From Schmidtea nova (taxonomy: Eukaryota): a stretch of 64,000 bases of DNA. The position numbers and the translations under genes are program-made. Location of the stretch: NCBI GenBank assembly GCA_044892505.1, contig CM097882.1, forward strand, positions 247,380,001 to 247,444,000, given 5' to 3'. The notes under the pieces are model-generated. The model was not told the origin of the DNA and did no database searches. It was given only the letters and a program-made list of their open reading frames with translations. This document shows, piece by piece, positions 38,919-61,388 of this stretch (positions within the stretch are counted from its first letter, which is position 1; the number at the start of each line of letters is the position of its first letter).

Positions 38919-39000
38919 ACTGTTTTCTTTACAGGTAGGTCAATACAATTTGATACTACATTTCATACAATTATTTACAAAAATATATTTTCCGCTTTAT

Positions 39001-41561: not shown

Positions 41562-41651
41562 TCTACAATGATATATACACTTGATTTGTTATCTATTTTT
41601 TGATTTTTCTTGTTTTTGTTTTACATATTTACAATTTTTCGCTTTATTTAT

Positions 41652-42008: not shown

Positions 42009-42133
42009 TTTCTAAATTATATACATTAATCGTTTTCTCGATTTCTCTTTTTATATTTTTATAATATCGATACCCATACTATTACGGTAATGCATTGTTA
42101 TTTACACTATTATTTACAGTCATATCCCGCCTC

Positions 42134-43510
42134 CTATATCACCATCACTGTCTCTCCTTCGTATCGCTCTTCATCTTCTATTTGTCTCCAAAATTCTTTG
42201 CCTTTCGTCCTCCTTTGAAATTCTTTCTGTACTTCTTCCGGTAATTCTATACTGTAGTTCATAATCTTTATATCTGGCCAATGTGTTATTGGTTTCTTGT
42301 TGAATACATCATATATCCATATTATTAATAATACTGTTATTACTGGAATAGTTGCTGCTAGTATTCCCAGACCAATTAGTTCTCTAACTTGTTTGTTTAC
42401 GTCCATCTTCGTAATTTCACTCTGGTTAATCATTGGTCCGTATTGTCCCTTTAGTTTATTTAGTAGTTGTTCTCGTTCTTGTTGTTTTCTTTTAACTTCT
42501 TTAATTACTTCTTCCGGCGTCCATCTTGCGTAAGGGTCTATTACTACTTGTTCCGCGTCCATTTGTTTCGTTGTCTGACTTAATTCTTTAAATTCGAGTT
42601 TTCTCACTTTCCCTTTGGACGTTGAGTTTACCGGTGTGTAGTACGTTTCGCATCTTTCCTGCTGATTTCCTAATATGTCCGTCTTTTCTACCGCACATAT
42701 CTCGTATTCGCTATTGAATTTCAGATTTCTGATACTTATTTCCTCTTTTCCTTTCACGTTTCCACAGTCTCGTGGCTGTCTTTCCCTTTGTTTCTGAACT
42801 ATTACCCAACATATTTCTAACGTTTTATTGTCTATTCTCCATAGTATAAGAGTTGCTGTAGTATTCTTTTCGGTTCTTATTTGTATTTCTTGGTTTTTCT
42901 GTTGTCCATTAGGTTTAAAGGTAGTGGTATACCTCGTTTTTCCTTTGTTCCGTTGTCTTCTGCTTTTTCGCGTTGTCTTTCCAATTCTTGTTCTGGTGGG
43001 TGTTTTATATATTTTGCATTCCAGTTCATTTACTGTTATTTTGTCGCTCTTCCTGATCAGGCATATTTCGTACGTTTGATTACTTTCTAACCCTTCTATC
43101 TGTATTGTGGTTGTTCCTCTGTTTGTTCGACATTGCGGCGGTGTATTCTGGTTTGTTTTCTTTTCCTGCTTCTTCCAGCATACGCCTTTGACGTCCGGTT
43201 CCATTCCGGTTAACTCTAACATTATAGTTGTTCTCCGTTTGGTGCGTTTATTTCTTCTTCCTCGTCGTATGAACTTTATTGTTTCCCCAGGTTGAAATGT
43301 TTTACAAATTGTCGTTCCTTTCTTGTGTCTTTCTTTTTCTAGTAAACATAGTTCATACGTCCTGTCTGCTTTTACTTCTGATATCTTGGTTACTTTATTT
43401 GTTTTCCTTTTCCGACTCGTCTTTATTTCGCTTACGCCAATTTCTTCGTTGCTTCTGGCCCAACACTTTGGGTTGGTGTTTTGGGTGTCGTTCATCTCTG
43501 TTACTGCCAT
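42134..43510 (-). CDS. 458-aa membrane protein with three FN3-like repeats; in frame with the polyprotein
   Basis: Repeats ADRTYELCL..TICKT, GLESNQTYEICLI..ECKIYKTP and NLKFNSEYEICAV..RCETYYTP. TM LIGLGILAATIPVITVLLIIWIY. Confidence 0.8.
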   Translation of the reverse strand: MAVTEMNDTQNTNPKCWARSNEEIGVSEIKTSRKRKTNKVTKISEVKADRTYELCLLEKERHKKGTTICKTFQPGETIKFIRRGRRNKRTKRRTTIMLELTGMEPDVKGVCWKKQEKKTNQNTPPQCRTNRGTTTIQIEGLESNQTYEICLIRKSDKITVNELECKIYKTPTRTRIGKTTRKSRRQRNKGKTRYTTTFKPNGQQKNQEIQIRTEKNTTATLILWRIDNKTLEICWVIVQKQRERQPRDCGNVKGKEEISIRNLKFNSEYEICAVEKTDILGNQQERCETYYTPVNSTSKGKVRKLEFKELSQTTKQMDAEQVVIDPYARWTPEEVIKEVKRKQQEREQLLNKLKGQYGPMINQSEITKMDVNKQVRELIGLGILAATIPVITVLLIIWIYDVFNKKPITHWPDIKIMNYSIELPEEVQKEFQRRTKGKEFWRQIEDEERYEGETVMVI

Positions 43511-43543
43511 TGTGTCAATGTCTATCCCTTCTTCTAACCGTTT

Positions 43544-46500
43544 TCACATTGTTAATATGAGTGCTAAACATAGTAATTCTGCTTGGTAGGTCACTCTTTC
43601 AGTTTCATTTGTGGTTACTCTTACTTCGGGCCTGTCTATGGTAATTTGTATAGTTGGCGTTGTTCGTCTGTCTATTGTCTGATGTTTCTTGTTTTTTGTT
43701 CCTTGTGTCTCTGTTCTTCCACACTTTCTTACGACATAGTCTCCTTTGGATGACTGCTGTACTGTTATGGTTACTTTGGGTGTTAGGTAATTTGCACATG
43801 CAATTGTCTTATGTGATCTCGGATCCTTTGGTTTCCGAACGGTGCACATTCTGTACCAAGTATCTAGCTCTAAGTCATCGATCTCTATGATTTCTTGTTC
43901 ATATTCTGAGATCCTGCAATCCATTGGACTATTTTGTCCCGATATTTTGTCCTTTTTTGACCAACATACTCGTTCGATTCCTTTTGCGTTTCCAATTTGT
44001 ATTGTCGCTTTTTCTTCACATATCATTCCTTGAGTTGGACTAATTAAGGTCATGATTACCGTTAGTAATAATAGTTCTGGTTTAAAGAATGGGTTTATTG
44101 TTTGTTTGTAGCCTGTTCTTTTTACTTCGTTTTTATTTTTATAGTTGTTGTTTCTTTGTTTCCCAAATTCATTGTTCTTATCATTTTTCTCTGTGTCCCT
44201 TCCTTTCTCTTCACTGTCCTCTTTATCTGATAACTCATGATCCTCTGGATTTTCTCGAGTACTATCGTCGTCGTTTCCTGTATTGTCACCTCCCCTTTGG
44301 TCGTTGAAAATGTCGTCCTCGACATTAACTGCTTCTATCATTTTTTCATACGTTATGGTTGTGAGTATACTTGCTTCGTATTCTTGTGTTACTGCCTGCT
44401 TAGGTATTTCCTTATCGGTTAATTTACAATCTAGAATCTCTTTCTTGGCTTTTATCCAATTATTAAGGTACGTTTTCATTAGTTCTTTCCATTTGTCCGT
44501 ACGTTCTGTTTCCTTTGGGTTGTTTGTGAATCGTAAATCTTTTCTTCTCATGAAGATGTCTATTATCTTTGGCCATTTGTTTATTATTAATGCACACTTT
44601 ATATACAAATTTTGGCCTTGTTCCATGCACTCGTTGATCCTGAATGCTGGTTCATTGGTGTTTGGGTTCATCCAATTGAGTATTGCTTCAGTTAGTTCAG
44701 CGTTATGCATCATGGAATGTACGCTAGCTTTTTTAACTGTCCTTGTAAGGTATTCTATTTCCTCCTGATTTGTGATTGTTTTTATGAAATTTATCACCTC
44801 CCAATTGTGCGCTAACAACGCTACGTCTAGTATTGAGCTGTCTTTGTTAGTTCTTCCCATGAGTCCTGCACCTGCTTCGTACAGTTCCTGTAACACTCGG
44901 GTTTTTGTGTTCGCTCTTGCTGCGAATATCATGAGGGTATCTCCCTTTTTATCTTTCATGTTCATGTCACTTCCGCAATCTTGCATCAACCGTGCAATTT
45001 CGACTACCCTCCTATCTTTTCCTGCTCGTAAGGCTCTATGTATTGGCAATACTCCATTCTTTGTTAATAAGAAAGTCACTGGCATTTCTCTTTTTATGAT
45101 CATCATATCGTTTTCATTGTAAGTTCCTTCCGCATATGCGTGTACCTTTTCCACAATTGATCCGAGTATCTCCAGTGTATGTTTAGAATTCTCGAATTCT
45201 GGTAATAGTTCTTTTGCTTTGTCCTGTATCGCATCTAACCTTTCTTGATATGGTACCTCTGCGCTGAAAAGTGGTGTAAATTTCCTTTTGCTTTCTCTTT
45301 CCTTTCGACCTAGGAATTGTTTGCATTTTTCGGGGTGGTTTAATATGTCTACTAGTTTGTCATACTCTTCCTCCACCGTTTTGTACTTATCTTGAAAATT
45401 GGATATATCTTTGTAAGTTATCGACTTGGTTAGCGATTTTGCACACCATTCCCTAATTTTCCTGAATAATGCTTCTTTTTCGCTTTCGAATTTACACTCC
45501 TCTTTGTTTTTGGAAATTGTGATCTTTCTTCTGTCCAATAATATTAACAGTGTTTTCTGATCACAAACTAATTTTAATAGGAATTGAAATAACGCGTTTT
45601 GTCCTTTACTGTATACTTCGTTTATATTTAATACCCATGTATCATTTTCGGATCTTTTCCATTTTATTAGCTTGCGTATTGTTTTGCAGTTACCGATTTT
45701 TATTGCCTCCTTGATTATATCACCTTTGATCAGTTCGTCTATTTCCCAAGTGGCCTTCTCGATTATTTGTTTGAGCATTATCTGATTTGAGCTCCATATT
45801 GCGTGATTCAAGACTGTTTTGTTTTCTCTATCGCGTTCCGTCCAGTTGAAATCGGCATTTATCAAAAGGTCTATTATTGCTTTATCCGATTTGTAGATGG
45901 CTGCTACCATTAATGGTGTTTCTTGTTCGCTATTCCCAAAACCAAGGTGTTGGTTTGTTTCCTTAGCGATTTTTAGAAATTCTTTTACTCTCTCTACTTC
46001 TCCCCATTTTATGGCGTTATGTAATGCTGGTTGTCCTCCTATGTCTTCTAGTGAAAGTATTTCTGGAATCTTTTCCAGTAGTTCTGAAATGACTGGTTTT
46101 GTTGGTAGTCCCCTTGCGTAATCACTAATTATCGACTGAATATCTCTTAATATATCGTCTCTGACATGCCATTTTCCCATTATTTCTCTGGCTTTTAGTA
46201 CAATTTCCTTGTTTCTTTTTTCTCGTTGATTGTTCTCTGCTTCGGTACTTTCATTGGTTGCTCTGAGCATATTCATTCTGGCTGTCTGGGATCTGGTTAT
46301 TATTCGTTCTTCTGGCGCTGTGGTTATTGTCTTTGGTACTTTTTTACATCTGCATGTATTAACGTATATTGGTCGTATCAATGGTCGATTAACAAGTTTT
46401 ACCTTCACATTGTTTTCCTTTTTGTATATAACTTCGTAAGGGCCTTTTCCTGGTCTTTGTAGTTTTTTAACGGTTCCTGGTATTATTTCTGGGGTTTCTA

Positions 46501-49500
46501 TCATCACCCAATCTCCGGGTTTAAGATCATTTGTTTTAACATTTTTCTTTTGATCGTGTAGGTCCTTGTAACTTTCTTGATAAAACTTTATGTTTAGTTC
46601 TGCTGTCTTCCATATCTCTTGCATTCGTTCTTTGAATTTGGTGACGTAATCATCTTCCTCCATATATTGAGACAAAGGTGGTTGATATTCAAGATCTATT
46701 GGCATATTGCATTCCCTTCCATACATTAATTGAAATGGACTCAATTTTGTTGCTGCGTGTATCGACATTCGGTATGCCATTAGACATAGCTTTATGTACT
46801 CATCCCAATCTGTTTGGTGTTTGCTTACATAATTGGATAACATTCGAATCAATGTGCCGTTAAATCTTTCCGTTTGTCCATTAGTTTGCGGATGATATGG
46901 TGACGTTCGTAATTTGGCTATTCTGAAGTAATTTGTTACTTCATCTAGTATTTCGCTCATAAAATTTGTTCCTTGATCTGTTAGTATTTGTTTCGGGGTT
47001 CCGTATCGACAACATATTTCCTCTACTAAAATTCTTGCTACGGTCTTTGCTTTTTGATCCGGCATCGCAAATGCTTCAGGGAATTTAGTCAAATAATCCG
47101 TTATTACCAATATATATTGATTCCCGTTTAAACTTTCTGGCAATGGTCCTATTACATCCATCGCAATGGTAGTCATTGGTTCCGCTGGTATTGGCATGGG
47201 TTTTAAGGGATTTTTCCATTTCTTCCCACTATCCTTTCTTGTGGCACAAGTTAAACAGTTCTTTATCCATTCCTTTACGTCTTCGTCCATTGTTGGCCAA
47301 TAATATTTTTGTCTCATGCGATTTAATGTTTTCTTATCGGACATGTGTCCTCCCAACTTTCCGTCATGGTATTGAGTTATTATCTCTTTTCGTCTATTAC
47401 CTGGCAGACACATTAATCGTTTCTCTCCATCTCGTATTAATAACCATCCTTTTTCTATTGTGTATCGATGTTGGTATTTCCTCATGTGTTCCTTTAACTC
47501 TGCATTGTCTTTGAATACATCCATATTTCGTGAGCTTAGGAATTCTATGATGGGTCTTAGTTCTTTATCCTCTTGCTGATCTTTCTTTAACTCACTGAAA
47601 TCCAAATCCTCTGCTATCATTATGCATATTCTTTGCACTTCTGGGTCTGTTAGTTCTGGAAACGTTAATCTTGACATGCAATCTGCGTTGGCATTCGCTT
47701 TTCCTGATTTGAATTTTATATCTGGTGAATATTCTTGTAATTGCATCGCCCATCTCATTAATCTGCTGGATGTTTCCTTATGTTGTCCTAGCCATACAAG
47801 TGGTTGATGGTCTGTGGTTATGCATATGACGTGTCCCCATAATAGATATTTGAAGTGTTTTATTGCTAATATTATTGCCAATGCTTCTCTTTCCGTTACT
47901 GAATAATTCTTCTCGTGTTTCTTGAATGTTCTGCTATAATATCCGATTACCCGCTCTTTTCCCTCGTCATCATATTGTCCTAACACTGCTCCTGCTGCAT
48001 ATCCACTTGCGTCGGTTGCGAGTAAAAATGGCTTTTTGAAGTCCGGGTGAACCAATATTGGTGCAGTTATTAGCTTATCTCTCAATGTTTCAAAGGCTGT
48101 TTGTTGTTCGCTTCCCCATATGAACGATACGTCTTTCTTTACTAGCTCCTGGATTGGTTTTGCAATCCCTGCGTAATCCTTTATGAATTTTCTATAGTAA
48201 CCGCATAATCCGAGAAATTCTTGGATCTGCGTTATCGTCTTTGGTACTGGACATTCTTTTACTTTATCAATGTTTCTGGGATCTGGTTCCTTTCCTTTTG
48301 CGGACACAATATGTCCTAAGAATGTCACTTTCTCCTTTGCCCAATCGCATTTCGATGGTTTGAGCTTGAGTTTCCATTGTCTCAATCTAACAAATACATC
48401 TCTGATATCTTGGATGTGTTGTTCAAATGTGCTTGAGTAGATCAGTAGGTCGTCAATGTAAACCATGCATTGTTTTATGCCGTGGGTAACGAAATTCATA
48501 CATCTTTGAAATGATGCTGGCGCATTGGTTAGTCCGAATGGCATTTTCCTAAATTGGTACAAGTCTCTTCCGATAGTGAAAGCAGTTTTCTCTTTGTCTT
48601 CCTCCTTCATTTTAATTTGCCAGTATCCGCTTTTCAAATCCAATGATGTAAAATATGCCGCTCCTTGTAATGTCAATAACATCTCGTTGATGTCCGGTAA
48701 TGGGTAGGTATCCCTTTTTGTAACTGCATTTAATCTCCGATAATCGATACAAAATCGTTGTGTTCCGTCTTTCTTTTTCACCATTACAACTGGGAATTGC
48801 CACGGTGAGCAGCTTGGTTCAATTACTTCTGCGTCTAGCATTTTCTGTACCTCTGCTTCTGCTACTGATTTTTGCGCTTCAGCTAACTTGTATGGTCTTA
48901 ACGCAATAGGCGTTTCGTCTGTTAGGGGAATCGTATGTAGTGTGACGTCGCATGTCCCTAGATCTAAATCGGATGCTGCGAATATATCTTTATATTCTAT
49001 CAGTAATCTTTCTAGCTGCTTCTTTTGATCCTCATTTAATAGTTGGCTATCAATGTTCCAAGTGGGTTCCTCCTCTTTTACTCCTTCTTTTATTGGTATT
49101 TCGATATCCATCATTGGAGTTAGTTTACCTAGTCTTTCATTTTCATAAATTATTTTATCCTCTTCATCGAAATTTACTACAGTTATTGGGATTTCTCCGT
49201 TGTCATTCGCACTCACTAATCCCCTTGCCATTGGCAACGACTTTCTCTTTTCAAATCTTTTACTGGGTTCAAAAATCATGTCACCTTCTATTGTAGGGTC
49301 TATTTTTACGAAGCATATTTTCTCTCTCCGTGCTGGTACGATTATTTGTTTCGAACTTGTTACTTTTGCTTCTATTGCGCATATCTGTCCTGTCCTATCC
49401 TTTAATCTCATTGTTCCGAGGTCAATAACTATTTCTTTAAATAATGCTGGCATCAGATCCGTGCCTATAATGCATGGTACGCTCAGTGCTGGTATTACTG

Positions 49501-52500
49501 CTACGTACGTTTCGATTTCCGTGTTTTGATGTTTTATCTTTACCCACCATCTTCCGGCAACTTCTACTACTTCTTTACTGCATGCTATTACGTGAACGTT
49601 GGTTCTCTCAATATCCCGTCTTTGTTCTTGTGGTATCCATTTTATATCTATTGCTGAGATATTTGCTCCTGTATCAATCATCGCTTCAATTTCCCTTCCG
49701 TTAATTTCGATTGTTGTAGTTAATACTGGACCGGTGTTTGATGACATTACTGCAATTGTATGTGAGTCTCCTTGCGGATCTACGCTTCTGCACCGTCTCG
49801 TTCTATAGTCTTCTGGTATCATAGGATATATGTTTGTCATCGGCATCATTTGCATTGTATTTTGTCTCATCCCTGGTGTTGGTTCTTGGTACATGGTTGG
49901 TGGGGGTGCGTAACACTTCCACATTTCCGCTGGATTCTTTTCGACATACTGTGGTACTTGATTTTTAAATACTTGACCTCCTTCGTTATCATCATCATCG
50001 TCGTCACTGGAATCGTCTTGGGTTCTGTACCCTTTCATTCTTTCCCATAGTCCTTTTCTCTCTTTCTTTAGTTGTTGTCTTGCTTGCTCGTTATTCATTA
50101 TCTTTTTAAATTTTCGTCCCACCTCTTCATCGGTTCCTTTCATTTTTGCCAGTATTTTTAGGAGTCTCTTTATTCGGTGAATATCTTTTGAATGACCGTG
50201 TAATACCATTGTTTTAGCCAGAAATGGTAAGAATCCTACCACCAATTTCCAATTTACTTTCTTTTCTCTTTTATAGATGTCAAAACAGGCTAACATTTGC
50301 GTTATTATTACCCGTATTATTTGTATAATTAGTATAACACCAAGTATTCCTGCCATCATTTGTCCAAATATTAAAAATCTTCCCCACATCGCTTTCATCA
50401 TGTTTTCCGTTGCCTTCTTAAAGTGGGCTGGTGACAATAATAATTCGTAATTTGGTCCACCTTGGTAATTTGTTCCTCCTGTTATTGTTACAATACTGGA
50501 TAACACCGCTTCTCGTCTTGCCGGAAATAGTATGTTTTGTCTTGCTGCTTCTAAATCCTTTGCGCTATAGAATCCCATATTGCTTACGTCTACGTCTTTA
50601 AATTTTCGTCCTTTTGATAGTTGCATCAATTCAAATTCCCTTGGTGCTGGTACCTCTGTTCTTGACGGAAACATAACCCAATTTCCGTCTGGTTTTTGGT
50701 ATAGTGGTCCATATGCGTTGCTGCAATTGAAAGGGTTTGGTTCGAAACTTACTGGATTTATGATTCTTGTCACTGGTTGTACATATCTTACTTTCCCTTT
50801 ATATTCGATTTCTAGTTCGTTAGTACACTGACCTGGTTGTAGTTTTGTCATTGTCGCTACCTTCGCATTTGTCTTTTTACATATGTATACGTACATGACC
50901 TCTCCGACTACTCTTCCAAAATGACCTTCTCTTAATGGTAATAATGGCATTGCACTATCCGGGTTTGTGATTGCTACTGCTAATTTTGTCTTTAATATTT
51001 CCCTATTTAATATGCAATCGTTGTTTATTAAATCGTAATACACTTTTTGTAGTGACGCTTGTCCTCTATGGAATAGAAAATCCATTTTATTGTTCATGTA
51101 AAGGTGTAATTTAACATCGTTCGTGTGTACTTTGCGTTTCGCACTAGGTACTTCTTGTTTTGATACAAAAATGCCGGGGTAGTTGGTTTCCAACATGGCT
51201 ACTCCGCATTTCAAGGCTGTTTTTCCTTTTACAAACCTCATTCCGATATCTGCATCTGAGGTAATTAGTACCGTTGGTGTATTTCTCATTTTAATTTGTT
51301 TTTCTTGTGTTCGGGTTTCAATCTTTTTCTCTCCCCGTACTGTGTCTTGAAGTATTTTTCCTCTTGCTGCCTCGTCTTCTTCTTCCTCTTGGAAGGTTTT
51401 CCCTTGTATCTCATCGAATTCTGCTTCCTTTAACAGTTGTAGTTGACATTCCTTCCCTCGTATCTGGTAGGTTAGGGTTGACATACCAGTCTGACAAGTG
51501 TTTGACTCGATTTTGCACATAGGTAGAGTTTTCATTTCTCCCGTCGTTGGATCGAAGAATGCCTCGTACGTTTTTAGTTCCACTGTATACGTATCTATTA
51601 CCACTAGGTTTGTTGCTGCTACTCCGAATATTGGATATGTTGCTCCTTGGCAGTACCCTTCTCCTCCCGTAATAGCTCCTGCTACATAATATGTTTGTTG
51701 CAATATCACTCCCGTTTTTCCTCTTATCTTTACTCTATCTCTAGTCTCTACTTCTCCATGTTTAAATAATTTTTCACAGTCTTCTCCTTGCAGCATTACC
51801 GATTCTCTTTCCGTTCCTGGCATCACGATTGCTGAATAATGGCGGTGTCCACAATAAAAAGCAAATCTGGTTTTATAAACTTTGCATTCTCTGACCATTG
51901 TTCTTATCAGTTCAGCTTCCTGATATACGTGGTATAATTGTCTCTTTTTTAATGTTTTTAGCTCCGTTGGGGTTGCGTCTTTACATTGTTCTGTCCCTCG
52001 TAATGAGTATTTTTCACCTAATGCCATTTGATCACAATCGAATACTTCAAATGCTGTTGCTCCGTCAGTACTAATCATCCATATTAACATCATCATAATG
52101 ATAGAACTCAGGTTTAGTGATGATTTCCCGTTTCCTGTTCCCGACTTTTCCTTTTCCAATTCTCCCAATATCTCTTCGAATTTCTTTTTCATATTTTTGG
52201 CTTGGTTTTTCTTTTGGTTCGTTTTTGTGAATGTTTCCCATCCTCCTTTACTGATGATGTACGGTTCTATTTCTTTCTCTATAATTTTGGCTGTATTCTT
52301 TATATGTCTTTCAAGTGCTGTGGGTTTCAGTCGACCTCTACTCAGTGTCAGCAGATTGTAGATGGTGTATGCCATAGCTATTAAATATTTGTTATCCGTC
52401 TCTGCTCCTTCCGTTAACTTCTTTATCAACATCGTGGTTCCTTGCCAATCTAGGTGGTTTGACCTTGTCTTCTCTTTTATTAGTTCTGGTAGGATTGGTG

Positions 52501-55500
52501 CGATGGCGCTATGCAGTGATTTCGCCCTTTCGCTTATTTCATTTATTCTCCACCATTTCTTTAATTCCGGATCGATTATTGCCAGTATTTCCATTAACAT
52601 CTTTGATATCCATTCCTCGCCTTGGTATGTTTGTGTTGTTTCTTTTTCTTTCGTTACGGCTATTTTATTTAGTTTCTTTAGACACAAATCCCATTGATCC
52701 CGTCTTTTTTCCTCTCTTGATTTTATAACTACATTTGCTGGATCCATCTTGGGTCTACCTCTAGGTCGTTTATCCATTGTCGTGCCCGTTTCTACTAATC
52801 TTGTTTCTCGTCCAGTTTCTTCTGTGACGTCTCTTGGTTCATTGGCTCTTTCTTCTAACCATCTTTCCATTTCTTGTGTGAATTGTACGTTTTCTACATT
52901 TGCCCTCCTTGCTTCCTCTTCTGCTATTTCATTTACTTCTTCGATGATTATTTCTTGTTCAACTTCATCTTCGGTGTTGGTTACCGGTATTGCTGTTGGT
53001 AATTCCTGAATTCTTTCGAAAATATTATCATCTTTCTCTTTTGTTAGCTCTATTAACTCCTCTAACATATCATCGCTATCTGTAAAAATTTCGTCTACAT
53101 CGTATGGTTCTGGTGGTGTTCTTTCTCTTGTCTCTCTTGGTGTTGTTCTAGCTTGTTCTGAGCTTGTTCCTGGAGTCCTTACCGATTTCATTGGGCTCGG
53201 CGTACTCATACTTCCTTTTGGTTTCTTTTCCTCTTTCAATTTCAATGGTTGACCTGCTATTGCTGCTACTGTCAATGTATTTGCGATATCTAATTGCGCT
53301 GGCGTTATTCCAATTTCTAAGCTGTTATCTAATGATCGTCCTTGGTGTTGTAAATGGAATGGTGGTTCATATCTCAATTTCTTTTTAATGTCTCGAACTT
53401 TCTCCGCTATCCCTACCCAAAACTCTTCCTTTTCTTGGTTCGGATATACTATTCTTAGGTGTACTTTCTGTGGCGATTCCTGCGAGAATTCTTGGTTTCT
53501 CCATTTTTTAATTACGTGATCCAATTGTTCTGGACACCACTCGTTAACTCTTTTGTATTCGGCGATTGCTTTTGCTACTTTACGCAAGCATGTTATGTCT
53601 TCTCCATTAACTACGAAAAAATCTGCGAGACCTTTTACTACTTTTCTCTTGCCGTGCGCATTGGTTTTTAATATTTCGACAAATTCTTCCGTTTTTTGTT
53701 TTTCTCTTTCCAACCACATGGTTGTCGTTTCTGGTCCGTCTAAATCTGCTGGCATGGCTTTTCTTGTTACCATACAGACTCTTCCGGTTTCCGGTTTGTG
53801 ATCGTCTTCTATGCCTATTCCGTATTCCTCTTCGTATTCGCCTGCTTTTGGTTCCCAACATTTTCCTCGTTCGTTCCATTGTTTTTCTACAGGTGTTCGT
53901 AATCGTCTGTTGAGATTGAGTTCTTCTAATACATCTTCCCATTCTGGCCAAATCCGCCAATTTCGATAAATGTCTACTATTTGTTGTAATTTATGCACAA
54001 CTTCTTTTTGTCGTTCCCGTTCTCTTTTCTCATCCTTAGCAGTTTCTCTTGGTGTATCGTCCATTCTGATAACGTGGATGGTTTGGTGATTATCCCATAT
54101 ACCAATTTTATATAGCCGTCTTTCATCGTGATCCCATAATACATGTTCGTTGTATTTCATGATTATGTCATCTTCCCATTCTTCTTCTGGTTCTCTTTGT
54201 AATAGTGTCTCGTTGATGACATTTACTAATTCTTTTATGGTACAATCTGCTACCACTTCAATTTCTTTGGTATCCTCATTAGGTAACTCTACTGCAATTT
54301 TCAGATCTGTTATTTTCCCTTGTCTGAACATTGCTTTTCCCATTTTTGCAATTACTTTTCCGTATGAGATCTGTGACCATCTCGTGTGACTTGTGTCACG
54401 TATGCATTCGATACATCGTTTCAACTTTTCGTATTCGCTTCTCATTAACTCCTTTCTATGTTTTTTGATTTGTGGGATGATTTGTTCTATCATGGAATTT
54501 AGATTTCCTCGTAAGATTCGTCCTTTCTCATATTCTAACCGTGGTTTTATCTTCCTCTCGAAACACATATTTGCTTCTTTTGCTACTTCTTGTAGGTTCT
54601 CTTCTCTCTTATCATCGCATATCGATAATGTTGTCACCTCTCCTGGCCATATGCCTGTTTCTATCAAATGCGTCCTTTTCTTCACTAGTCCATTCTGTGA
54701 ATAGAGGAATTTGTTTTTATATGAACTCCCTAATCTGTCTTCCACCCATTGATAAATATCTTCCGTGAGTGGAGTTTTGATCCAAATCCTTGGCAAACAT
54801 GTTTTTATCTCTATTAGGATTATATATTCATGGAGTGGTTCTTTTAATAATTTTCCTACGTATTGGCTTAGTGTTTCTACTTCCCGGCCTGGTAACCACT
54901 CTTTATAGTTCATTTGTAATATTGCTCTCATGAATTTTCTATAGTGTTTCTTGTCAATGAATTCCTCATTATATATTACTTCTAGCGTATTATCTAATAA
55001 TTTCTGGATCTCGTCTTCTTTTACTTGAATAGTTTCTGGTGTCTTTACTACTTCTATCTTTTTGTCTTCAATTTCCGGTTCGTCTAGCATGTCCCCTGCT
55101 AGACTACTGACGTCACTATCCTCTTCATCGTCTGAAAAATTCTTTGCCTGGCCTCTCAACATGTTAATGTGTTTTATCTGGTTAATTTCACTTGGTGTAT
55201 TTTCCGTTGGTCTTGTTTCACTTTTAATAGCTTTTTGTGTTGATTCACTCTTGTCGTCTACTACTTCGACCTTTCTCAATTTTCGTTCTAACTCGTCTAT
55301 TTCTCCCAACCGTCTTCGTATCATTTTCCCTTTAAATATTCGACTGATTCGTGTTTCGTGACGCACTGGCGATGGAATTCCTTCTGGTTCTATTTCCTTG
55401 ATTACCATCACATTTCTTTTTGTCTCTACTACTCCCATGTTTTCCCATGTATCCGTTAGTTTCAATTTTACTTCTGGTGCACCTTCTATTTTTAGGAATG

Positions 55501-57523
55501 CTTCTCTGGGCAGTTTCGTTACTCCTGGAGCCATTTCATTCACTTTATTGAACAATATTTCTACTTCTTCCTTTATGTTATATTGGAATCGAAACACGTG
55601 CTTGTTTGGCAAAATTACCATCATTCCTCTTTTCCCGAGTTTCCTTTTCTCTTCTTGGTTCCCTTCTTTTTCTACTTCCTTTTCTGTTTCTTTTTCTGCT
55701 TCTTCATCTTCTTGTATTATCTCTTTTCGGCCTTCGTTGTTGGTTGGATTTGGGTTTGTTGGATTTATTTCTGGTACAGTCTCTTTCTCGTGGGTATTTG
55801 TTTGATTGGTTGCTCTCATCATATTAATTCTTAGAGGTTGTCGTTCTCTTTCTTGCTGTTTTTGTTCCTCTTCTCTTTGTATTCTTGCCCATTCCTGAGC
55901 ATGTCGTGCTTGACTTTCCCGATTCAATCGTTCGTTTTCGCTTTCTATTTTTCTCATCATATTGATTTGTTGTTGACCTGTTTGCGGATTTCCTCTGGTT
56001 GTATTGTTTATCAGCTCCGTCAATCTTTGGACCTCTTGCATTAAATGTATCTCTTTAGTGGTATTTTTATTTTGGTTATTATTATTACTATTTGGTTGGT
56101 TTCCGTATTCCGGTTGGTTTCCATTATTTGGCTGATTTCCATAATTCTGTCGGTTTCCACCAGTTGGTTGGTTGCCATAGTTTTGTCGGTTTCCGGTATT
56201 CTGCCAGTTTCCTCGTTGATTGCTTCTTTGTCCGCAATTTCTTGATAGGTGTCCAGGCCGTCCACAATTAAAACAGGTTATTGTGTAACATCTGCTCTCT
56301 GAATGCCCTTTTACTCCACATTTTCCACAATTCAAGTTCTGATAACATTCTTGTTGCCAATGTCCCAATTTCCCACATGTTTTGCATTGTTTCGTTGGTC
56401 CTTGGGGGTTGTAATTGTTTTGATTTCCGTAATTTGATACTTTATTCCCTTCATTCCTTCGTTGCGGTGGTGGTCGGTTTAATTGTTGTGAATTTGGAAT
56501 GTGGTTATTCAGGTTCACTTCTTGTTCGTTTTGTGCTGTATCCATAGCTAAATAGATTCTACCATCATTTCCTATCATGTGTAGTTCAAATCTATTAGCT
56601 GTTTCTAGTGCTTGGTCGATGGTTTTACAACCTTGACATCCAACTTGCGCTCTTATGTCGGGTCTTCTTAATCCTCCCACAAAGATAGCTGCCATTAACT
56701 CCTCATTTATTGGGCTGTCTTGATTAAAGATCAACTTTGCTAACTTTTTCAATTCGCTTGCATATACCGCATTCGATTCATTTATCTTTTGTTTCCTCAT
56801 TGAGAATTCCGTGAATGCCTCATTCAATACTTTATTTATTCCAAAGGTTTGTTGGAAAAAGTCCTTTATCGCTGACCAACTTGTAGGTGGATTAGTTCCA
56901 TTCTTTGCTTCCAAATATAGATCTAATGCGCTATCTTTCAAATATAGCTGAATTCTGCTTACAGTTGTTTCTGGTTTCCACTTGCATACTTCCACGAATA
57001 TGCCAAATTCCTTTAAGAAAGTTTCTAATTTACTCGCATCTCCATTAAACGGTTCTCCGGAAAATTTGTCTTTTATCTCTTCTCTTGGTTCACTCATTTC
57101 GATTCCGCTGTCTGTAGTTATTTTACTTTCGTTTCCTCTTGTTTCTAGTTCACTGTTAGGTTCGTCACTTGAATTTCGGTCGATCTCAGTTTCCTTTGCT
57201 GATTCGTTATCTGATGCTTTACTATCGTTATCGGTGTCGTCACTTTCTGTTTCTTGTTCTACTTCGTCTTCTATTTCTTCTATATAATCGTTGTTGGTTT
57301 TGTCGACTTCTATTTCACTTATTGGGTTTCTCTCGGGTTCTGCTTGATTTTCTTTGTTGCTTGAACTGTTGCTTGTTACTGATAATTTATCGTTTTCGAT
57401 AATCGACTTTTGTATTATTATCTGCCTTGCTTTACTTCCTTTTGGGCCTTTCTGATTATTATTCTTGGTAGCTTTATTCTTTTCTGCTGGTTTTATTATG
57501 ACACTCTTTTCTCCTTTTCTCAA
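43544..57523 (-). CDS. 4,659-aa Gag-accessory-Env-Pol-accessory polyprotein
   Basis: One uninterrupted frame with CCHC x3, DTG protease, YIDD RT, TDASG RNase H and HHCC/DDE/GPY integrase, plus the extra domains listed separately. The track start is TTG; the first ATG is at 57097. Confidence 0.96.
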   Translation of the reverse strand: MRKGEKSVIIKPAEKNKATKNNNQKGPKGSKARQIIIQKSIIENDKLSVTSNSSSNKENQAEPERNPISEIEVDKTNNDYIEEIEDEVEQETESDDTDNDSKASDNESAKETEIDRNSSDEPNSELETRGNESKITTDSGIEMSEPREEIKDKFSGEPFNGDASKLETFLKEFGIFVEVCKWKPETTVSRIQLYLKDSALDLYLEAKNGTNPPTSWSAIKDFFQQTFGINKVLNEAFTEFSMRKQKINESNAVYASELKKLAKLIFNQDSPINEELMAAIFVGGLRRPDIRAQVGCQGCKTIDQALETANRFELHMIGNDGRIYLAMDTAQNEQEVNLNNHIPNSQQLNRPPPQRRNEGNKVSNYGNQNNYNPQGPTKQCKTCGKLGHWQQECYQNLNCGKCGVKGHSESRCYTITCFNCGRPGHLSRNCGQRSNQRGNWQNTGNRQNYGNQPTGGNRQNYGNQPNNGNQPEYGNQPNSNNNNQNKNTTKEIHLMQEVQRLTELINNTTRGNPQTGQQQINMMRKIESENERLNRESQARHAQEWARIQREEEQKQQERERQPLRINMMRATNQTNTHEKETVPEINPTNPNPTNNEGRKEIIQEDEEAEKETEKEVEKEGNQEEKRKLGKRGMMVILPNKHVFRFQYNIKEEVEILFNKVNEMAPGVTKLPREAFLKIEGAPEVKLKLTDTWENMGVVETKRNVMVIKEIEPEGIPSPVRHETRISRIFKGKMIRRRLGEIDELERKLRKVEVVDDKSESTQKAIKSETRPTENTPSEINQIKHINMLRGQAKNFSDDEEDSDVSSLAGDMLDEPEIEDKKIEVVKTPETIQVKEDEIQKLLDNTLEVIYNEEFIDKKHYRKFMRAILQMNYKEWLPGREVETLSQYVGKLLKEPLHEYIILIEIKTCLPRIWIKTPLTEDIYQWVEDRLGSSYKNKFLYSQNGLVKKRTHLIETGIWPGEVTTLSICDDKREENLQEVAKEANMCFERKIKPRLEYEKGRILRGNLNSMIEQIIPQIKKHRKELMRSEYEKLKRCIECIRDTSHTRWSQISYGKVIAKMGKAMFRQGKITDLKIAVELPNEDTKEIEVVADCTIKELVNVINETLLQREPEEEWEDDIIMKYNEHVLWDHDERRLYKIGIWDNHQTIHVIRMDDTPRETAKDEKRERERQKEVVHKLQQIVDIYRNWRIWPEWEDVLEELNLNRRLRTPVEKQWNERGKCWEPKAGEYEEEYGIGIEDDHKPETGRVCMVTRKAMPADLDGPETTTMWLEREKQKTEEFVEILKTNAHGKRKVVKGLADFFVVNGEDITCLRKVAKAIAEYKRVNEWCPEQLDHVIKKWRNQEFSQESPQKVHLRIVYPNQEKEEFWVGIAEKVRDIKKKLRYEPPFHLQHQGRSLDNSLEIGITPAQLDIANTLTVAAIAGQPLKLKEEKKPKGSMSTPSPMKSVRTPGTSSEQARTTPRETRERTPPEPYDVDEIFTDSDDMLEELIELTKEKDDNIFERIQELPTAIPVTNTEDEVEQEIIIEEVNEIAEEEARRANVENVQFTQEMERWLEERANEPRDVTEETGRETRLVETGTTMDKRPRGRPKMDPANVVIKSREEKRRDQWDLCLKKLNKIAVTKEKETTQTYQGEEWISKMLMEILAIIDPELKKWWRINEISERAKSLHSAIAPILPELIKEKTRSNHLDWQGTTMLIKKLTEGAETDNKYLIAMAYTIYNLLTLSRGRLKPTALERHIKNTAKIIEKEIEPYIISKGGWETFTKTNQKKNQAKNMKKKFEEILGELEKEKSGTGNGKSSLNLSSIIMMMLIWMISTDGATAFEVFDCDQMALGEKYSLRGTEQCKDATPTELKTLKKRQLYHVYQEAELIRTMVRECKVYKTRFAFYCGHRHYSAIVMPGTERESVMLQGEDCEKLFKHGEVETRDRVKIRGKTGVILQQTYYVAGAITGGEGYCQGATYPIFGVAATNLVVIDTYTVELKTYEAFFDPTTGEMKTLPMCKIESNTCQTGMSTLTYQIRGKECQLQLLKEAEFDEIQGKTFQEEEEDEAARGKILQDTVRGEKKIETRTQEKQIKMRNTPTVLITSDADIGMRFVKGKTALKCGVAMLETNYPGIFVSKQEVPSAKRKVHTNDVKLHLYMNNKMDFLFHRGQASLQKVYYDLINNDCILNREILKTKLAVAITNPDSAMPLLPLREGHFGRVVGEVMYVYICKKTNAKVATMTKLQPGQCTNELEIEYKGKVRYVQPVTRIINPVSFEPNPFNCSNAYGPLYQKPDGNWVMFPSRTEVPAPREFELMQLSKGRKFKDVDVSNMGFYSAKDLEAARQNILFPARREAVLSSIVTITGGTNYQGGPNYELLLSPAHFKKATENMMKAMWGRFLIFGQMMAGILGVILIIQIIRVIITQMLACFDIYKREKKVNWKLVVGFLPFLAKTMVLHGHSKDIHRIKRLLKILAKMKGTDEEVGRKFKKIMNNEQARQQLKKERKGLWERMKGYRTQDDSSDDDDDDNEGGQVFKNQVPQYVEKNPAEMWKCYAPPPTMYQEPTPGMRQNTMQMMPMTNIYPMIPEDYRTRRCRSVDPQGDSHTIAVMSSNTGPVLTTTIEINGREIEAMIDTGANISAIDIKWIPQEQRRDIERTNVHVIACSKEVVEVAGRWWVKIKHQNTEIETYVAVIPALSVPCIIGTDLMPALFKEIVIDLGTMRLKDRTGQICAIEAKVTSSKQIIVPARREKICFVKIDPTIEGDMIFEPSKRFEKRKSLPMARGLVSANDNGEIPITVVNFDEEDKIIYENERLGKLTPMMDIEIPIKEGVKEEEPTWNIDSQLLNEDQKKQLERLLIEYKDIFAASDLDLGTCDVTLHTIPLTDETPIALRPYKLAEAQKSVAEAEVQKMLDAEVIEPSCSPWQFPVVMVKKKDGTQRFCIDYRRLNAVTKRDTYPLPDINEMLLTLQGAAYFTSLDLKSGYWQIKMKEEDKEKTAFTIGRDLYQFRKMPFGLTNAPASFQRCMNFVTHGIKQCMVYIDDLLIYSSTFEQHIQDIRDVFVRLRQWKLKLKPSKCDWAKEKVTFLGHIVSAKGKEPDPRNIDKVKECPVPKTITQIQEFLGLCGYYRKFIKDYAGIAKPIQELVKKDVSFIWGSEQQTAFETLRDKLITAPILVHPDFKKPFLLATDASGYAAGAVLGQYDDEGKERVIGYYSRTFKKHEKNYSVTEREALAIILAIKHFKYLLWGHVICITTDHQPLVWLGQHKETSSRLMRWAMQLQEYSPDIKFKSGKANANADCMSRLTFPELTDPEVQRICIMIAEDLDFSELKKDQQEDKELRPIIEFLSSRNMDVFKDNAELKEHMRKYQHRYTIEKGWLLIRDGEKRLMCLPGNRRKEIITQYHDGKLGGHMSDKKTLNRMRQKYYWPTMDEDVKEWIKNCLTCATRKDSGKKWKNPLKPMPIPAEPMTTIAMDVIGPLPESLNGNQYILVITDYLTKFPEAFAMPDQKAKTVARILVEEICCRYGTPKQILTDQGTNFMSEILDEVTNYFRIAKLRTSPYHPQTNGQTERFNGTLIRMLSNYVSKHQTDWDEYIKLCLMAYRMSIHAATKLSPFQLMYGRECNMPIDLEYQPPLSQYMEEDDYVTKFKERMQEIWKTAELNIKFYQESYKDLHDQKKNVKTNDLKPGDWVMIETPEIIPGTVKKLQRPGKGPYEVIYKKENNVKVKLVNRPLIRPIYVNTCRCKKVPKTITTAPEERIITRSQTARMNMLRATNESTEAENNQREKRNKEIVLKAREIMGKWHVRDDILRDIQSIISDYARGLPTKPVISELLEKIPEILSLEDIGGQPALHNAIKWGEVERVKEFLKIAKETNQHLGFGNSEQETPLMVAAIYKSDKAIIDLLINADFNWTERDRENKTVLNHAIWSSNQIMLKQIIEKATWEIDELIKGDIIKEAIKIGNCKTIRKLIKWKRSENDTWVLNINEVYSKGQNALFQFLLKLVCDQKTLLILLDRRKITISKNKEECKFESEKEALFRKIREWCAKSLTKSITYKDISNFQDKYKTVEEEYDKLVDILNHPEKCKQFLGRKERESKRKFTPLFSAEVPYQERLDAIQDKAKELLPEFENSKHTLEILGSIVEKVHAYAEGTYNENDMMIIKREMPVTFLLTKNGVLPIHRALRAGKDRRVVEIARLMQDCGSDMNMKDKKGDTLMIFAARANTKTRVLQELYEAGAGLMGRTNKDSSILDVALLAHNWEVINFIKTITNQEEIEYLTRTVKKASVHSMMHNAELTEAILNWMNPNTNEPAFRINECMEQGQNLYIKCALIINKWPKIIDIFMRRKDLRFTNNPKETERTDKWKELMKTYLNNWIKAKKEILDCKLTDKEIPKQAVTQEYEASILTTITYEKMIEAVNVEDDIFNDQRGGDNTGNDDDSTRENPEDHELSDKEDSEEKGRDTEKNDKNNEFGKQRNNNYKNKNEVKRTGYKQTINPFFKPELLLLTVIMTLISPTQGMICEEKATIQIGNAKGIERVCWSKKDKISGQNSPMDCRISEYEQEIIEIDDLELDTWYRMCTVRKPKDPRSHKTIACANYLTPKVTITVQQSSKGDYVVRKCGRTETQGTKNKKHQTIDRRTTPTIQITIDRPEVRVTTNETERVTYQAELLCLALILTM
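43780..44082 (-). other. Polyprotein domain: internal signal-like peptide plus FN3-like domain
   Basis: PELLLLTVIMTLISPTQG|MICEE followed by IDDLELDTWYRMCTVRK..IACANYLTP. Confidence 0.65.
44770..45065 (-). other. Polyprotein domain: ankyrin repeat cluster 2
   Basis: NGVLPIHRAL..GSDMNMKDKKGDTLMIFAA..GAGLMGRTNKDSSILDVAL. Confidence 0.85.
45640..46055 (-). other. Polyprotein domain: ankyrin repeat cluster 1
   Basis: GGQPALHNAIKWG..EQETPLMVAA..RDRENKTVLNHAI. Confidence 0.85.
46340..47420 (-). other. Polyprotein domain: integrase (HHCC, DDE, GPY/F)
   Basis: YHDGKLGGH..CLTC; IAMDVIGPL; LTDQGTNF; NGQTERFN; GPYEV. Confidence 0.96.
47680..49060 (-). other. Polyprotein domains: reverse transcriptase and RNase H
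   Basis: KKDGTQRFCIDYRRLN, LDLKSGYWQI, MPFGLTNAPASF, YIDD (48449-48460), TDASG, ERE and TDHQPL. Confidence 0.97.
49400..49730 (-). other. Polyprotein domain: aspartic protease
   Basis: IEAMIDTGANISAI (DTG at 49667-49675) and IIGTDLM. Confidence 0.93.
50200..52110 (-). other. Polyprotein domain: envelope glycoprotein of the chuvirus G / herpes gB-like type
   Basis: Signal-like IIMMMLIWMISTDGATA|FEVFDC. Cys-rich ectodomain with C..YCG, DCILNR..LAV..NP, GEVMYVYIC and CTNELEIEYKG..PVTRI. TM FGQMMAGILGVILIIQIIRVII. Family assignment is by motif recall. Confidence 0.8.
52222..52620 (-). other. Polyprotein domain: Bcl-2-like
   Basis: BH2-like IEPYIISKGGWETF (cf. Bcl-xL LEPWIQENGGWDTF); divergent BH1-position LDWQGTTML; helical context. 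Confidence 0.6.
52749..52772 (-). other. Polyprotein motif: AT-hook
   Basis: KRPRGRPK matches the HMGA AT-hook core. Confidence 0.6.
53265..55630 (-). other. Polyprotein region with 3-4 ubiquitin-like domains
   Basis: About 53265-53467 HLRIVYP..KVRDIKKKL..FHLQHQGRSLDN..GI..TLTV. About 54068-54302 IAVELP..EIEV..TIKEL..MKYNEHVL..L.KIGI..TIHVI. About 54615-54830 ..DRLG..FLYSQNG..ETGI.PG..TLSI. A weaker candidate lies at about 55395-55630. Confidence 0.65.
56234..57070 (-). other. Polyprotein domains: Gag capsid-like region and three CCHC knuckles
   Basis: FNGDASKLETFL..IFVGGLR; CKTCGKLGHWQQEC, CGKCGVKGHSESRC and CFNCGRPGHLSRNC. Confidence 0.93.
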
Positions 57524-58077
57524 CGGGATTACTTTTGTATACTCAATTTTCCTGTCTTATCGTGTTCCGATTCTTTTCTTCCTTAGTTGATTGGTTTGGT
57601 TTGATTGATTTATCTAAAATACAAATGTCACTTCAACGATACTCTATTGTTATCGTTGCGCTTTTATTCCCTTTTTACGGGACTTCTCATTACTGGGTTT
57701 CTATTATTTTTCCCCATTCCCAGATTCCCCTTTATTTAAGTCTATTTAAATTATCTATATACTAGTCACAATTATCTATTTAGTCATAACAATTATCTAT
57801 CGGTTATTAAAATACATCAATTATTTTTCCCGCGGTCTCCCAATTTATTTGTCGTTCGAACGCTCTAATTCCCTGAGTCATTTGACTCGATTATTATTTT
57901 TTCATCTCTTTATCTTTCTCTCTGCTAGCCTCTAATTATTAATTCTGCCGGTCTTTCCGGTCAGCTCCTATTTCTCGATTCTACTTGCATGCATTATTTT
58001 AGGTCGCATAATCAGCTTTACTCGCATTTCTCTATTATCGGTGCGCACTATTCTCATTATCGTCGACGATCACAACT

Positions 58078-58697
58078 CTGGGCCTATATTCCCTCTGTTG
58101 TTATTTCTTATCACTTGCAACCCTGGGCCTATATTCCCTCCGTTGCTACTCAAACGATTGTAACCCTGGGCTTATATTCCCTCCGTTACTATCTTCCTTT
58201 AATTTTAAATAATTGCAACCCTGGGCCTATATTCCCTCCGTTGCTACTCAACAATTGTAACCCTGGGCCTATATTCCCTCCGTTACTATATATCCGGATA
58301 TCCCTATTGGCTCCTTTGGCCTCTAATTAATATCAATTATCTCAAATGGCTCTTATGGCCTCAAATTCATATCTCAATTATCTTAAATGGCTCTATTGGC
58401 CTTAAATTCATATCTCAATTATCTCAAATGGCTCTATTGGCCTTAAATTCATATCTCAATTATCTCAAATGGCTCTATTGGCCTTAAATCATATCTCTCA
58501 ATAACGCCTAGCTAGGTCATTCAATATGGCTCTTTGGCCTCAACCCTTTGTTTCAAGGGACAAACCGCTGATAACCCTTTGTTTCAAGGGACAACCTCTA
58601 ATAACCCTTTGTTTCAAGGGACAAACCGCTGATAACCCTTTGTTTCAAGGGACAAATTCTAATAACCCTTTGTTTCAAGGGACAAACCGCTGATAAC
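58078..58697. repeat. Three adjacent tandem arrays upstream of gag
   Basis: 5x CTGGGCCTATATTCCCTCCGTT core (58078-58290); about 4x 41-bp TCTCAAATGGCTCTATTGGCCTTAAA (58310-58490); 5x CCCTTTGTTTCAAGGG at 58544, 58575, 58605, 58636 and 58666. Confidence 0.92.
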
Positions 58698-59171
58698 TTT
58701 TCCTTAACCGGTTAATCGTAATTCTTAACTTCGCTAGCGACTACAATTTCTCAGCTGAGTTCTCTCAATTTCATGCGAGCTGATTATGCACCTCTTATTT
58801 TTCTCTATAATTCCTCGATTCTTTGTTTTATTACTAATTCTTTCGCTGATCAGTCATAATTCAATTTTTATTATTTTCTCTGCGCGCATCTTACCTCCTC
58901 AGGGTTTTCCCTATTTCTCTCCCCAACCAAAATATACAAAAAGATCGCGTTGGTCTACTAATGCGGGATGTGGTGATCAATCACATCACAAAAGCTTTCC
59001 AACATTTGCGATTGGCCCCTTTCTATATACCCCGAGTGGGTTGATCAACTGGTACCTCCCAATGGGTGCTTAACGGACTACTTGACAGTAGCTCAAAAAT
59101 TAATTAACATTGTTGATTGCTCCCTTGACTTTGTCATTCGATACAATATATTAACACACTCTAAATATTTA

Positions 59172-59633
59172 TTATAAATAAACTACAATTTTATCAGCTA
59201 CAGAGAAATTGCACATGGGGCACTCATCACACTTATTCGCACAGTTTTTACAGAATCGAAAATGTCCACATGGCAAAAACATTATTTGGATTTCACTGTC
59301 TTCGCATATGTAACATTGTTTATATTGTTTTGCTGCCTCGACCCCTTGCGACATCCATCGGTTATATGTTAGACTTAACTGCTGTTCTATATGTCGGCAT
59401 CTGATATTCAACTCGGCATCCTCTAATCGTGCTTTGTACCATTTATATCGCGTATTTATATCGAGTTTATTTACTTTCTCTATGATTTTTATTAACTCAG
59501 TTGTTTCCTCAGTTTGTGTCGTAGGTTCCTCATATTCGGATGCTCTTATTCGGGTTATTTTTTCGCAGACTGTCTCAAATGTATCGTTCTCGGTGTTGAA
59601 AAATTCTTCGATTTCTTTCAGTTTTTCCTCCAT
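59172..59633 (-). CDS. 153-aa protein with a C-terminal IAP/MDM2-type RING finger
   Basis: CYIC..IMFLPCGHFRFCKNCANKCDECPMC..KIVVYL at the extreme C-terminus. No BIR motif seen. Confidence 0.85.
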   Translation of the reverse strand: MEEKLKEIEEFFNTENDTFETVCEKITRIRASEYEEPTTQTEETTELIKIIEKVNKLDINTRYKWYKARLEDAELNIRCRHIEQQLSLTYNRWMSQGVEAAKQYKQCYICEDSEIQIMFLPCGHFRFCKNCANKCDECPMCNFSVADKIVVYL

Positions 59634-59936
59634 TTCCTAGATAATTTATTTAATTACTGTGTTAATATTATTCGAAAAGTAGTACTGTGTTTCGTTTTCG
59701 ACAGTTTATAGCCTCCCCCCGTGTTTCGGTAAATTGTCGTCCCGACCTGTTATTTATGAATGCATTTGTTCAATTTATCTACTAATTTGTTTTAATTCTC
59801 TGTTTGTAATTATCTATTTCCACGCAACTCACTTTTATCTCGATTACTCTTTCGGTTACTATTTCTACTCACAAAATTCTTATTTTAAATTTCTCTGTTG
59901 TCATTGGGTTCGCATTTTCGCATAAAAACAAAGTTG

Positions 59937-59954
59937 ATCCCGGCTGAGCCCCCA
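59937..59954 (-). promoter_or_regulatory. Primer-binding site, tRNA-Pro type
   Basis: Minus strand TGGGGGCTCAGCCGGGAT, 16/18 identical to the classical tRNA-Pro PBS TGGGGGCTCGTCCGGGAT; 6 nt from the LTR. Confidence 0.85.
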
Positions 59955-60487
59955 AATTTATGCTGGGATTATGGGTGGGTTTTACGTAATTCAAATAAAC
60001 AATTAATCATACTAGGGATTCCGCGCCCATAACCATACATAACATGACTACTACACGCGTATGCCCTTGACTATTCCCCACTAGTCAAGTTGGTACTGCA
60101 TACGGTGGTGGAAAAATGATGGGCAGGTGAGCTTTGTCGCCAAAACTACTCCCCATTTATCTTCCCTCGGGTTCTTGCTGCCGATAGAAGGTCTTACGCA
60201 TTTACATTCTATGGATGTTCGTTTCCTACTGAATTTTATACTACATATCCCTATGATCTATCACACGCTTTTCCCAATGACGCTCTCCCTCGCTGTTCTA
60301 CAAGCCTACGAAAACTCTCGCTGCTAAGTAACGGTCGGTGTAGGTTTTACGATGCGATTTTTAGTTCTACGAATTACTTATGTAGTCTTATTTTATTTAG
60401 TGAAATCACACGATGAGAGAAAAAATTTACACAGTAATACTTTATTAAAATAATAAAGACAGGTTGTTATGTTACATGGAGATTTTC

Positions 60488-61072: not shown

Positions 61073-61388
61073 GTTGTCTGAAGATTATAACGATAAATTC
61101 ACTGGAGGGCCTATCAACAATGTTATTTTATTTAAACAACTATTATTATTATTAAACGAGATGTATATTAATGTTTTTAATTGTTGAGTTCTCTACAAAA
61201 TTATTTAACTATCTAATCATTGAAGACTAAAAAGGTTTATTGAACTAATTTTATATTAATAAATGAATTTCCTAATGACTATAACAACTACAATACTAAA
61301 TCTACATGACAACACTATTAACAAAACGAACATTTCAGAATTCTTTAAAACATTTATTTAATTTAAAAACAGGCGGCCATTGATTCAG

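Follow-up and report, generated by a model that had tools for sequence, protein, structure and literature searches.

A Burro-like Ty3/gypsy polyprotein from Schmidtea nova with a predicted gB-like glycoprotein in frame between Gag and Pol

Burro elements of planarians have been described as carrying an env in frame between BCL2 and protease, an arrangement called the first such case in the sections of the paper drawn on here (PMC6431247); the env region was read there as a gypsy Env with an HHpred probability of 96.7%, together with matches to mononegavirus glycoproteins. According to a second study (PMC13524379), gB-type env is found throughout Ty3/gypsy elements and the order GAG-ENV-POL occurs in Nematoda, Bryozoa and Platyhelminthes: 9/9 of the flatworm elements listed are ENV_HSV, six of them from Schmidtea with sizes of 14.5–18 kb, and the Schmidtea rows are given with no LTR/PBS found. 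Processing, topology and stoichiometry are not dealt with in its main text, nor does the name Burro occur there; from the size of the Schmidtea ENV_HSV elements, we infer that these are Burro ORF1s. As both the layout and the gB class are already in print, the arrangement analysed here is not new in itself: these two papers do not support the statement of the original prediction that gB/chuvirus-type envs are known mainly from Bel/Pao elements, nor the view that the layout is unrecorded.

The present locus contributes a young and well-delimited copy, complete with its LTRs, target duplication and empty site; the assignment to class III of a Burro-type env first described as F-type, by which two papers working under different names are linked; and evidence for purifying selection on env. 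It also raises the question of how Pol could enter the particle if a luminal protein lies between it and Gag. We consider it probable that a Burro-like Ty3/gypsy frame here joins Gag, a gB-like glycoprotein and Pol, with the ectodomain threaded into the ER, released on its N-terminal side by the signal peptidase of the host and within its tail by the element protease, and likely acting as the fusion protein of an enveloped particle.

A young Burro-like element and its polyprotein

The window comprises 64,000 nucleotides of Schmidtea nova contig CM097882.1 (positions 247,380,001 to 247,444,000, forward strand; assembly GCA_044892505.1) and contains a complete LTR retrotransposon on its minus strand (Table 1). 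The two LTRs show 0 differences over 3,247 bp in the self-comparison, and a 4-bp target duplication flanks the element (34891-34894 and 63208-63211). Positions 1-1233 of the window are an inverted 98% duplicate of both element flanks from which the element is absent; as this pre-insertion (empty) site has the target 4-mer once, the ends of the element are fixed. The primer-binding-site-like 18-mer may resemble the 3' end of a tRNA-Pro, whilst inspection of the element sequence revealed no clear polypurine tract. Elsewhere in the window lie a broken Helitron (Helitron_like_N, PIF1 helicase; 11918-16720, minus), inside which there is an exact 1,131-bp tandem duplication (11918-14181), and a fragment of another LTR element with RNase H and integrase pieces (25476-26883, plus).

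Table 1. Features of the element within the window, in order of decreasing window coordinate
Feature	Position	Strand	Basis or remark
Whole LTR retrotransposon, Burro-like giant Ty3/gypsy, 28,313 bp	34895..63207	minus	self-comparison of the window
5' LTR, 3,247 bp, TG...CA ends	59961..63207	minus	
Primer-binding-site-like 18-mer, 6 nt behind 5' LTR	59937..59954	minus	
Accessory ORF upstream of Gag, C3HC4 RING finger	59172..59636	minus	Pfam
ORF1 polyprotein frame, 4,670 codons stop to stop	43544-57556	minus	
Three CCHC zinc knuckles of Gag, residues 391-441	56234..56386	minus	Pfam
Putative BCL2-like helical domain directly ahead of env	52187..52699	minus	matching stretch of relative P0008 only: Pfam Bcl-2, E 0.001, under cut-off
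Internal signal-like stretch, residues ~1813-1834	~52055-52120	minus	hydropathy
Predicted class III (gB/chuvirus G-type) ectodomain, residues 1835-2399, 565 residues, 14 Cys, one N-glycosylation sequon (residue 2277)	50360..52054	minus	
Env transmembrane helix, residues 2400-2418	50303..50359	minus	most hydrophobic 19-mer of the frame
Tail of ~190 residues between Env and protease, in frame; basic at first, acidic further on and finally Pro/Met-rich	49715..50302	minus	
Aspartyl protease; IDTGA at residue 2627 (49678), DTG at 49675	49445..49714	minus	Pfam
RT, RNase H, integrase, Ty3/gypsy order	46889..48781	minus	Pfam and PDB
Ankyrin repeats behind integrase, best of three stretches	45755..46024	minus	Pfam
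Second internal signal-like stretch near ORF1 end	44018..44074	minus	
469-codon frame behind ORF1 stop, C-terminal hydrophobic helix	42134..43543	minus	without Pfam match; belongs to ORF1 elsewhere in the family
Accessory ORF, TRAF-like (zf-TRAF, MATH)	40179..41588	minus	Pfam
Two further accessory ORFs, 367 and 197 codons	38346..40104	minus	no family match over cut-off
3' LTR, 3,247 bp	34895..38141	minus	
Two short open frames inside 3' LTR	36323-36853, 35422-36018	minus	without Pfam match

ORF1 has its first Met at 57097 and runs through Gag, ~1,350 residues of cargo, the signal-like stretch, the ectodomain, the membrane helix, the tail, protease, RT, RNase H, integrase and ankyrin repeats; from Gag to integrase there is neither a stop nor a frameshift, and a single frame for Gag, env and the DTG protease is indeed what had been proposed. 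Slippery heptamers are common throughout the A-rich ORF1, none of them being needed for the continuous frame, and an I-N-M-M/L-R word occurs three times behind Gag. With more than 25 kb, long LTRs and one ORF1 of ~5,000 residues, the element is Burro-like. The helical domain ahead of env returned no direct Pfam, PDB or Atlas match and is labelled BCL2-like only tentatively, by way of its counterpart in P0008. Of the Ubi/SUMO-like, dUTPase-like and BIR domains associated with Burro-like elements, a check for the first gave one ubiquitin-like stretch at E 0.06 and two other stretches without match; no Pfam match to dUTPase or BIR was found in the element. The accessory ORFs at 38346-41588 are partly coiled-coil-like in look, and short tandem arrays of 41-bp and 30/31-bp units occur in the leader that separates the RING ORF from Gag (57929-58725).

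By its sequence Pol is Ty3/gypsy (Metaviridae), the best solved relative being Ty3 Gag-Pol (E 4e-120, best of the 25 PDB matches listed). Membership of Bel/Pao was rejected: no Bel/Pao Pfam family matched, and gypsy-type RT_RNaseH and Integrase_H2C2 were found instead, as anticipated in the original prediction of a Gypsy element.

At least 73 near-identical copies of the family are present in this genome (73 of 3,748 candidates scored, all at 99-100% protein identity), with env free of stops in 64 of the 73. The commonest ORF1 length in the family is 5,140 codons, stop to stop (exactly so in 23/73 scored copies); in the window copy a stop at 43544-43546 ends ORF1 far behind integrase. The 241-bp tail-protease junction was recovered full-length at 100% rounded identity in 40/40 scored matches, and env plus protease are open end to end in 8/8 loci of this family and in 18/30 loci fetched after a Pfam family search of the genome. 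Since the Env-Pol fusion is intact in many copies and in further env-bearing families, we regard it as a family trait; an assembly slip or chance as the source of the fused frame is ruled out by the intact copies across the family. Two more env-bearing families were seen in the genome (loci L009-L038), with frames of 3,401 and 3,393 codons and the protease in frame; their env is 36-38% identical to that of the window.

The fused order extends to distant relatives: env, RT and integrase lie in one chain in P0004, P0009, P0016 and P0019, at 30-40% identity (4/10 of the polyprotein-type proteins scanned). Relatives P0004, P0009 and P0016 likewise have hydrophobic helices behind integrase, so that the polyprotein may have a second, conserved luminal cassette at its C-terminal end. 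Repeats between the second signal-like stretch and the C-terminal helix (42134-44110, minus) look fibronectin-III-like by eye; a Pfam search of these was without match. Two to four protease-like domains follow env in one chain in P0004, P0006, P0007 and P0018.

Class and ancestry of the env ectodomain

The ectodomain matches Pfam PF24664 (Monjiviricetes_fusion) at E 1.3e-71 and 241.9 bits (cut-off 27). An HMMER search of 1.84 billion representatives gave 961 matches at E up to 0.001: among the best 150 of these, long proteins of 30-46% identity come first, followed by stand-alone proteins of ~660 residues and 20-28% identity, and the best stand-alone full-length match is a chuvirus glycoprotein (E 4e-36, 28% identity). 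Looking up 20 of the matched proteins returned two named chuvirus glycoproteins and two clusters of insect genome proteins, most of the 20 being without a name. Relative P0009, an env-PR-RT-IN polyprotein, is labelled as a Flavobacteriaceae metagenome protein and is probably animal DNA in a bacterial bin. A word-indexed protein search found one relative of near length and none longer; as HMMER found 961 matches, the blanks of this search are uninformative. A search of a phage collection with env gave no match. The rows of the Atlas for env name class III families only, namely Monjiviricetes fusion, rhabdovirus G and GP64, with the first match at 0.96 and an Atlas recognition of 1569, below the usual level of 2300.

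Whilst the single env sequence gave 0 matches in the PDB, an env profile reached herpes gB at E 0.012. An AlphaFold2 model of the ectodomain (monomer; 109 sequences) has a mean pLDDT of 88.3, a pTM of 0.70 and a 48-residue central helix, and 37/37 of the matches listed by Foldseek against the PDB, the search on which the fold assignment is based, belong to herpesvirus gB (alignments of 620-730 columns; best E 1.3e-13), with global TM-scores of only 0.25-0.43 and identities of 9-12%. All 14 ectodomain cysteines are kept (14/14), each in 93-100% of the aligned rows with a residue at that position. As a prediction, the class III, gB-like fold is firm, in keeping with the chuvirus/gB-like envelope that had been proposed from the sequence. 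We also considered the class I reading put forward for Burro (PMC6431247), in which the 96.7% HHpred probability to gypsy Env would apply to this region as well: every structural and family result for the window env is class III, the flatworm elements listed in PMC13524379 are ENV_HSV throughout, and the Foldseek matches refute a class I protein, so that we give this reading next to no weight. For the window env itself, a class I F-type gypsy Env is ruled out by listed fold matches that are all to gB and by the absence of a canonical furin site.

The env is under purifying selection: dN/dS lies at 0.03-0.20 in 15/15 pairs among six sister-family envs, the oldest pairs of which are near saturation (dS 1.7-2.8). 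In two same-family copies compared with the window env, 44 and 6 synonymous changes stand beside 0 non-synonymous changes over 486 codons, a zero count that is biased because both copies were taken from the top of a protein-identity ranking.

Does the ectodomain then serve in entry? Translocated and folded, Env could instead be a receptor decoy, or a membrane scaffold used in assembly, in ER budding or in the loading of vesicles. The fusion loops align with those of relatives, with loop 1 in the window env less hydrophobic and without the Trp or Met found there in many relatives; this altered first loop in the family of the window element would suit such a role, as would the absence of a canonical furin site (R-X-K/R-R) from the window env; according to PMC13524379, moreover, it is not known how gB-type elements enter cells. 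However, the same paper describes the furin site as not always conserved in gB-type ENV, the complete cysteine set and the full five-domain-length ectodomain are kept, and the selection on env is strong. We therefore judge a scaffold or decoy function to be unlikely beside that of an entry fusogen.

In order to place the env among its relatives, a tree was built by a quick method from 56 of 109 rows (10 were dropped for <75% coverage, then the first 42 non-embedded rows were kept). On this midpoint-rooted tree, in effect unrooted and without bootstrap, 14 embedded envs together with fragment P0015 and the long-branch row P0041 are separated from both named chuvirus G proteins by a branch with SH-aLRT 99. 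Identities follow the same pattern: the window env shares 30-41% with embedded envs versus 22-28% with chuvirus G. These results fit an env that is old and inherited, with no sign of recent capture in the sequences compared. The original prediction had favoured an independent capture by this Gypsy element. A recent capture of a chuvirus G gene would agree with chuvirus G proteins being the nearest named stand-alone relatives of the window env, and GAG-ENV-POL elements are non-monophyletic on the Pol tree (PMC13524379), so that this order may have ancient and repeated origins; on the other hand, the embedded envs group apart from chuvirus G, albeit on a quick tree, and are closer in identity, which makes a recent capture by the window element very improbable.

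Topology and the proposed processing and packaging of Pol

The best 12-mer of the signal-like stretch has a Kyte-Doolittle value of 2.25 (rank 16 of 4,659 windows), just under the cut-off of 2.3, and a hydrophobic 12-mer above 2.3 lies just ahead of the env start in 10/12 relatives, the exceptions being P0006 and P0007. The stretch ends in small residues ahead of a conserved x-Y/F-D-C start (14 relatives), and signal cleavage is predicted ahead of residue 1835. Between ectodomain and protease there is one clear strong membrane helix, which would leave Gag and Pol cytosolic and the ectodomain luminal. A weaker hydrophobic stretch, common to stand-alone chuvirus G, follows at residues ~2435-2454: the topology would differ if this stretch crossed the membrane, and it constitutes the main topological doubt. 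The coordinates and sizes given in the original prediction are correct.

Processing of the polyprotein by signal peptidase and the element protease, as put forward in the original prediction, is likely. Gag and cargo would be made in the cytosol; the signal at 1813-1834 would open translocation and the helix at 2400-2418 would stop it, returning protease, RT and integrase to the cytosol. A signal peptidase cut before residue 1835 would then yield a Gag-side precursor tethered by the signal, with Pol hanging on the Env tail, and the element protease would cut within the tail and Pol. As Gag and Pol would find themselves in separate chains after the signal peptidase cut, Pol would be packaged via the Env tail: Env trimers and membrane-tethered Gag would gather at one membrane, where the protease could dimerise and release the enzymes. 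Gag, Env and Pol would be synthesised at 1:1:1, plausibly as had been proposed, with other particle ratios arising after translation. In its most extended form, this scheme describes enveloped particles infectious from cell to cell, in which signal peptidase severs Gag from Pol, the enzymes ride on the tail of a class III Env, clustering of Env activates the protease and the left-over signal anchors Gag; we offer this combination as a tentative possibility, well short of the confidence placed in the polyprotein reading itself. If Pol is packaged on the Env tail, Env would be required for every round of retrotransposition and not only for infection.

The main rival of the polyprotein model is splicing, whereby stoichiometry would be set by a Gag-Pol message that skips env and/or by a separate Env(-Pol) message and the full polyprotein would be a minor product. 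The element probably splices, since accessory ORFs have acceptor-like sites: a T-rich acceptor-like site precedes the first ATG in four accessory ORFs, including both at 38346..40104, and a donor-like site is present at 58894. However, the best acceptor-like sites in the env part of ORF1 (51832 and 52071) lie inside the ectodomain or signal, and no top-ranked acceptor was found immediately 5' of either the env signal or the protease when 901 sites were ranked by a crude T-minus-G score. Furthermore, relatives whose env is 30-40% identical keep the frame at both env junctions, a feature that splicing would not require. Comparison of four contig sets (one study, run kind unrecorded) with positions 42000-61500 revealed, at env, no joint whose ends are of splice type; a joint from 60191 to 50258 with 13 foreign letters was seen in one sample of the four. 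We consider it improbable that splicing governs stoichiometry, and retain the polyprotein model.

In the same contig sets, the depth at 59577-60227 is ~15-fold above that of the element body in 4/4 sets, contig depth from runs of unrecorded kind being a poor measure; this may correspond to open chromatin at the LTR end, and one loose end there resembles a transposase adapter.

In the literature consulted we found no study testing how these polyproteins are processed, their topology or their infectivity, although the single frame or its processing may already be treated in Grohme 2018 and Sacco 2022. With a high-copy family in a flatworm that is likely tractable in the laboratory, the question of Pol packaging can be tested on native material.

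Comparison with known systems

The structural polyproteins of alphaviruses and flaviviruses consist of a capsid, an internal signal and an envelope protein, cleavage being carried out by signal peptidase together with a viral protease. These are unrelated to the window element and carry class II fusogens, so that the analogy is one of mechanism only. Chuvirus G (Wufeng shrew chuvirus 2, Tacheng tick virus 4) shares the Pfam family and the cysteine pattern of the window env, but is a stand-alone protein of ~660 residues with an N-terminal signal and 22-28% identity, whilst herpesvirus gB has the same predicted fold at 9-12% identity. The same glycoprotein family is found inside an LTR retrotransposon in Anakin, as far as the preprint text used here describes it (bioRxiv 10.1101/2020.02.15.950899): there, however, the host element is a Bel/Pao of mosquitoes with a chuvirus G, whereas the window element has a Ty3/gypsy Pol.

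Closest in architecture is Burro/GYPSM1, with likeness to Burro1-4 judged from published descriptions. In the sections drawn on here (PMC6431247), these elements share with the window element a size of ~30 kb, an ORF1 of ~5,000 residues, three CCHC knuckles and accessory ORFs, as well as the succession of a BCL2-like domain, an in-frame env and the protease, and cargo with ankyrin, MATH/TRAF and RING domains. The two differ in the placement of MATH, which the window element has in a downstream accessory ORF, whereas Burro1 carries it within ORF1 and the D. tigrina element in an upstream ORF; in BIR, for which the window element gave no match; and in the reading of env, class III here versus gypsy/F-type for Burro. 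The 5,140-codon frame of the family agrees in length with the ORF1 described for D. tigrina, an element with two knuckles (PMC6431247); as 5,140 is counted stop to stop and the number of knuckles differs, we do not claim identity with that element.

Smed_errantivirus_1-6, as presented in PMC13524379, have in common with the window element a Ty3/gypsy Pol, the GAG-ENV-POL order and many near-identical copies, and their gB-type ectodomain likewise lies between a signal and a membrane helix. In sister-family locus L022, whose env is 36% identical to that of the window, 21/21 residues around fusion loop 1 match Smed_errantivirus_1 by eye.
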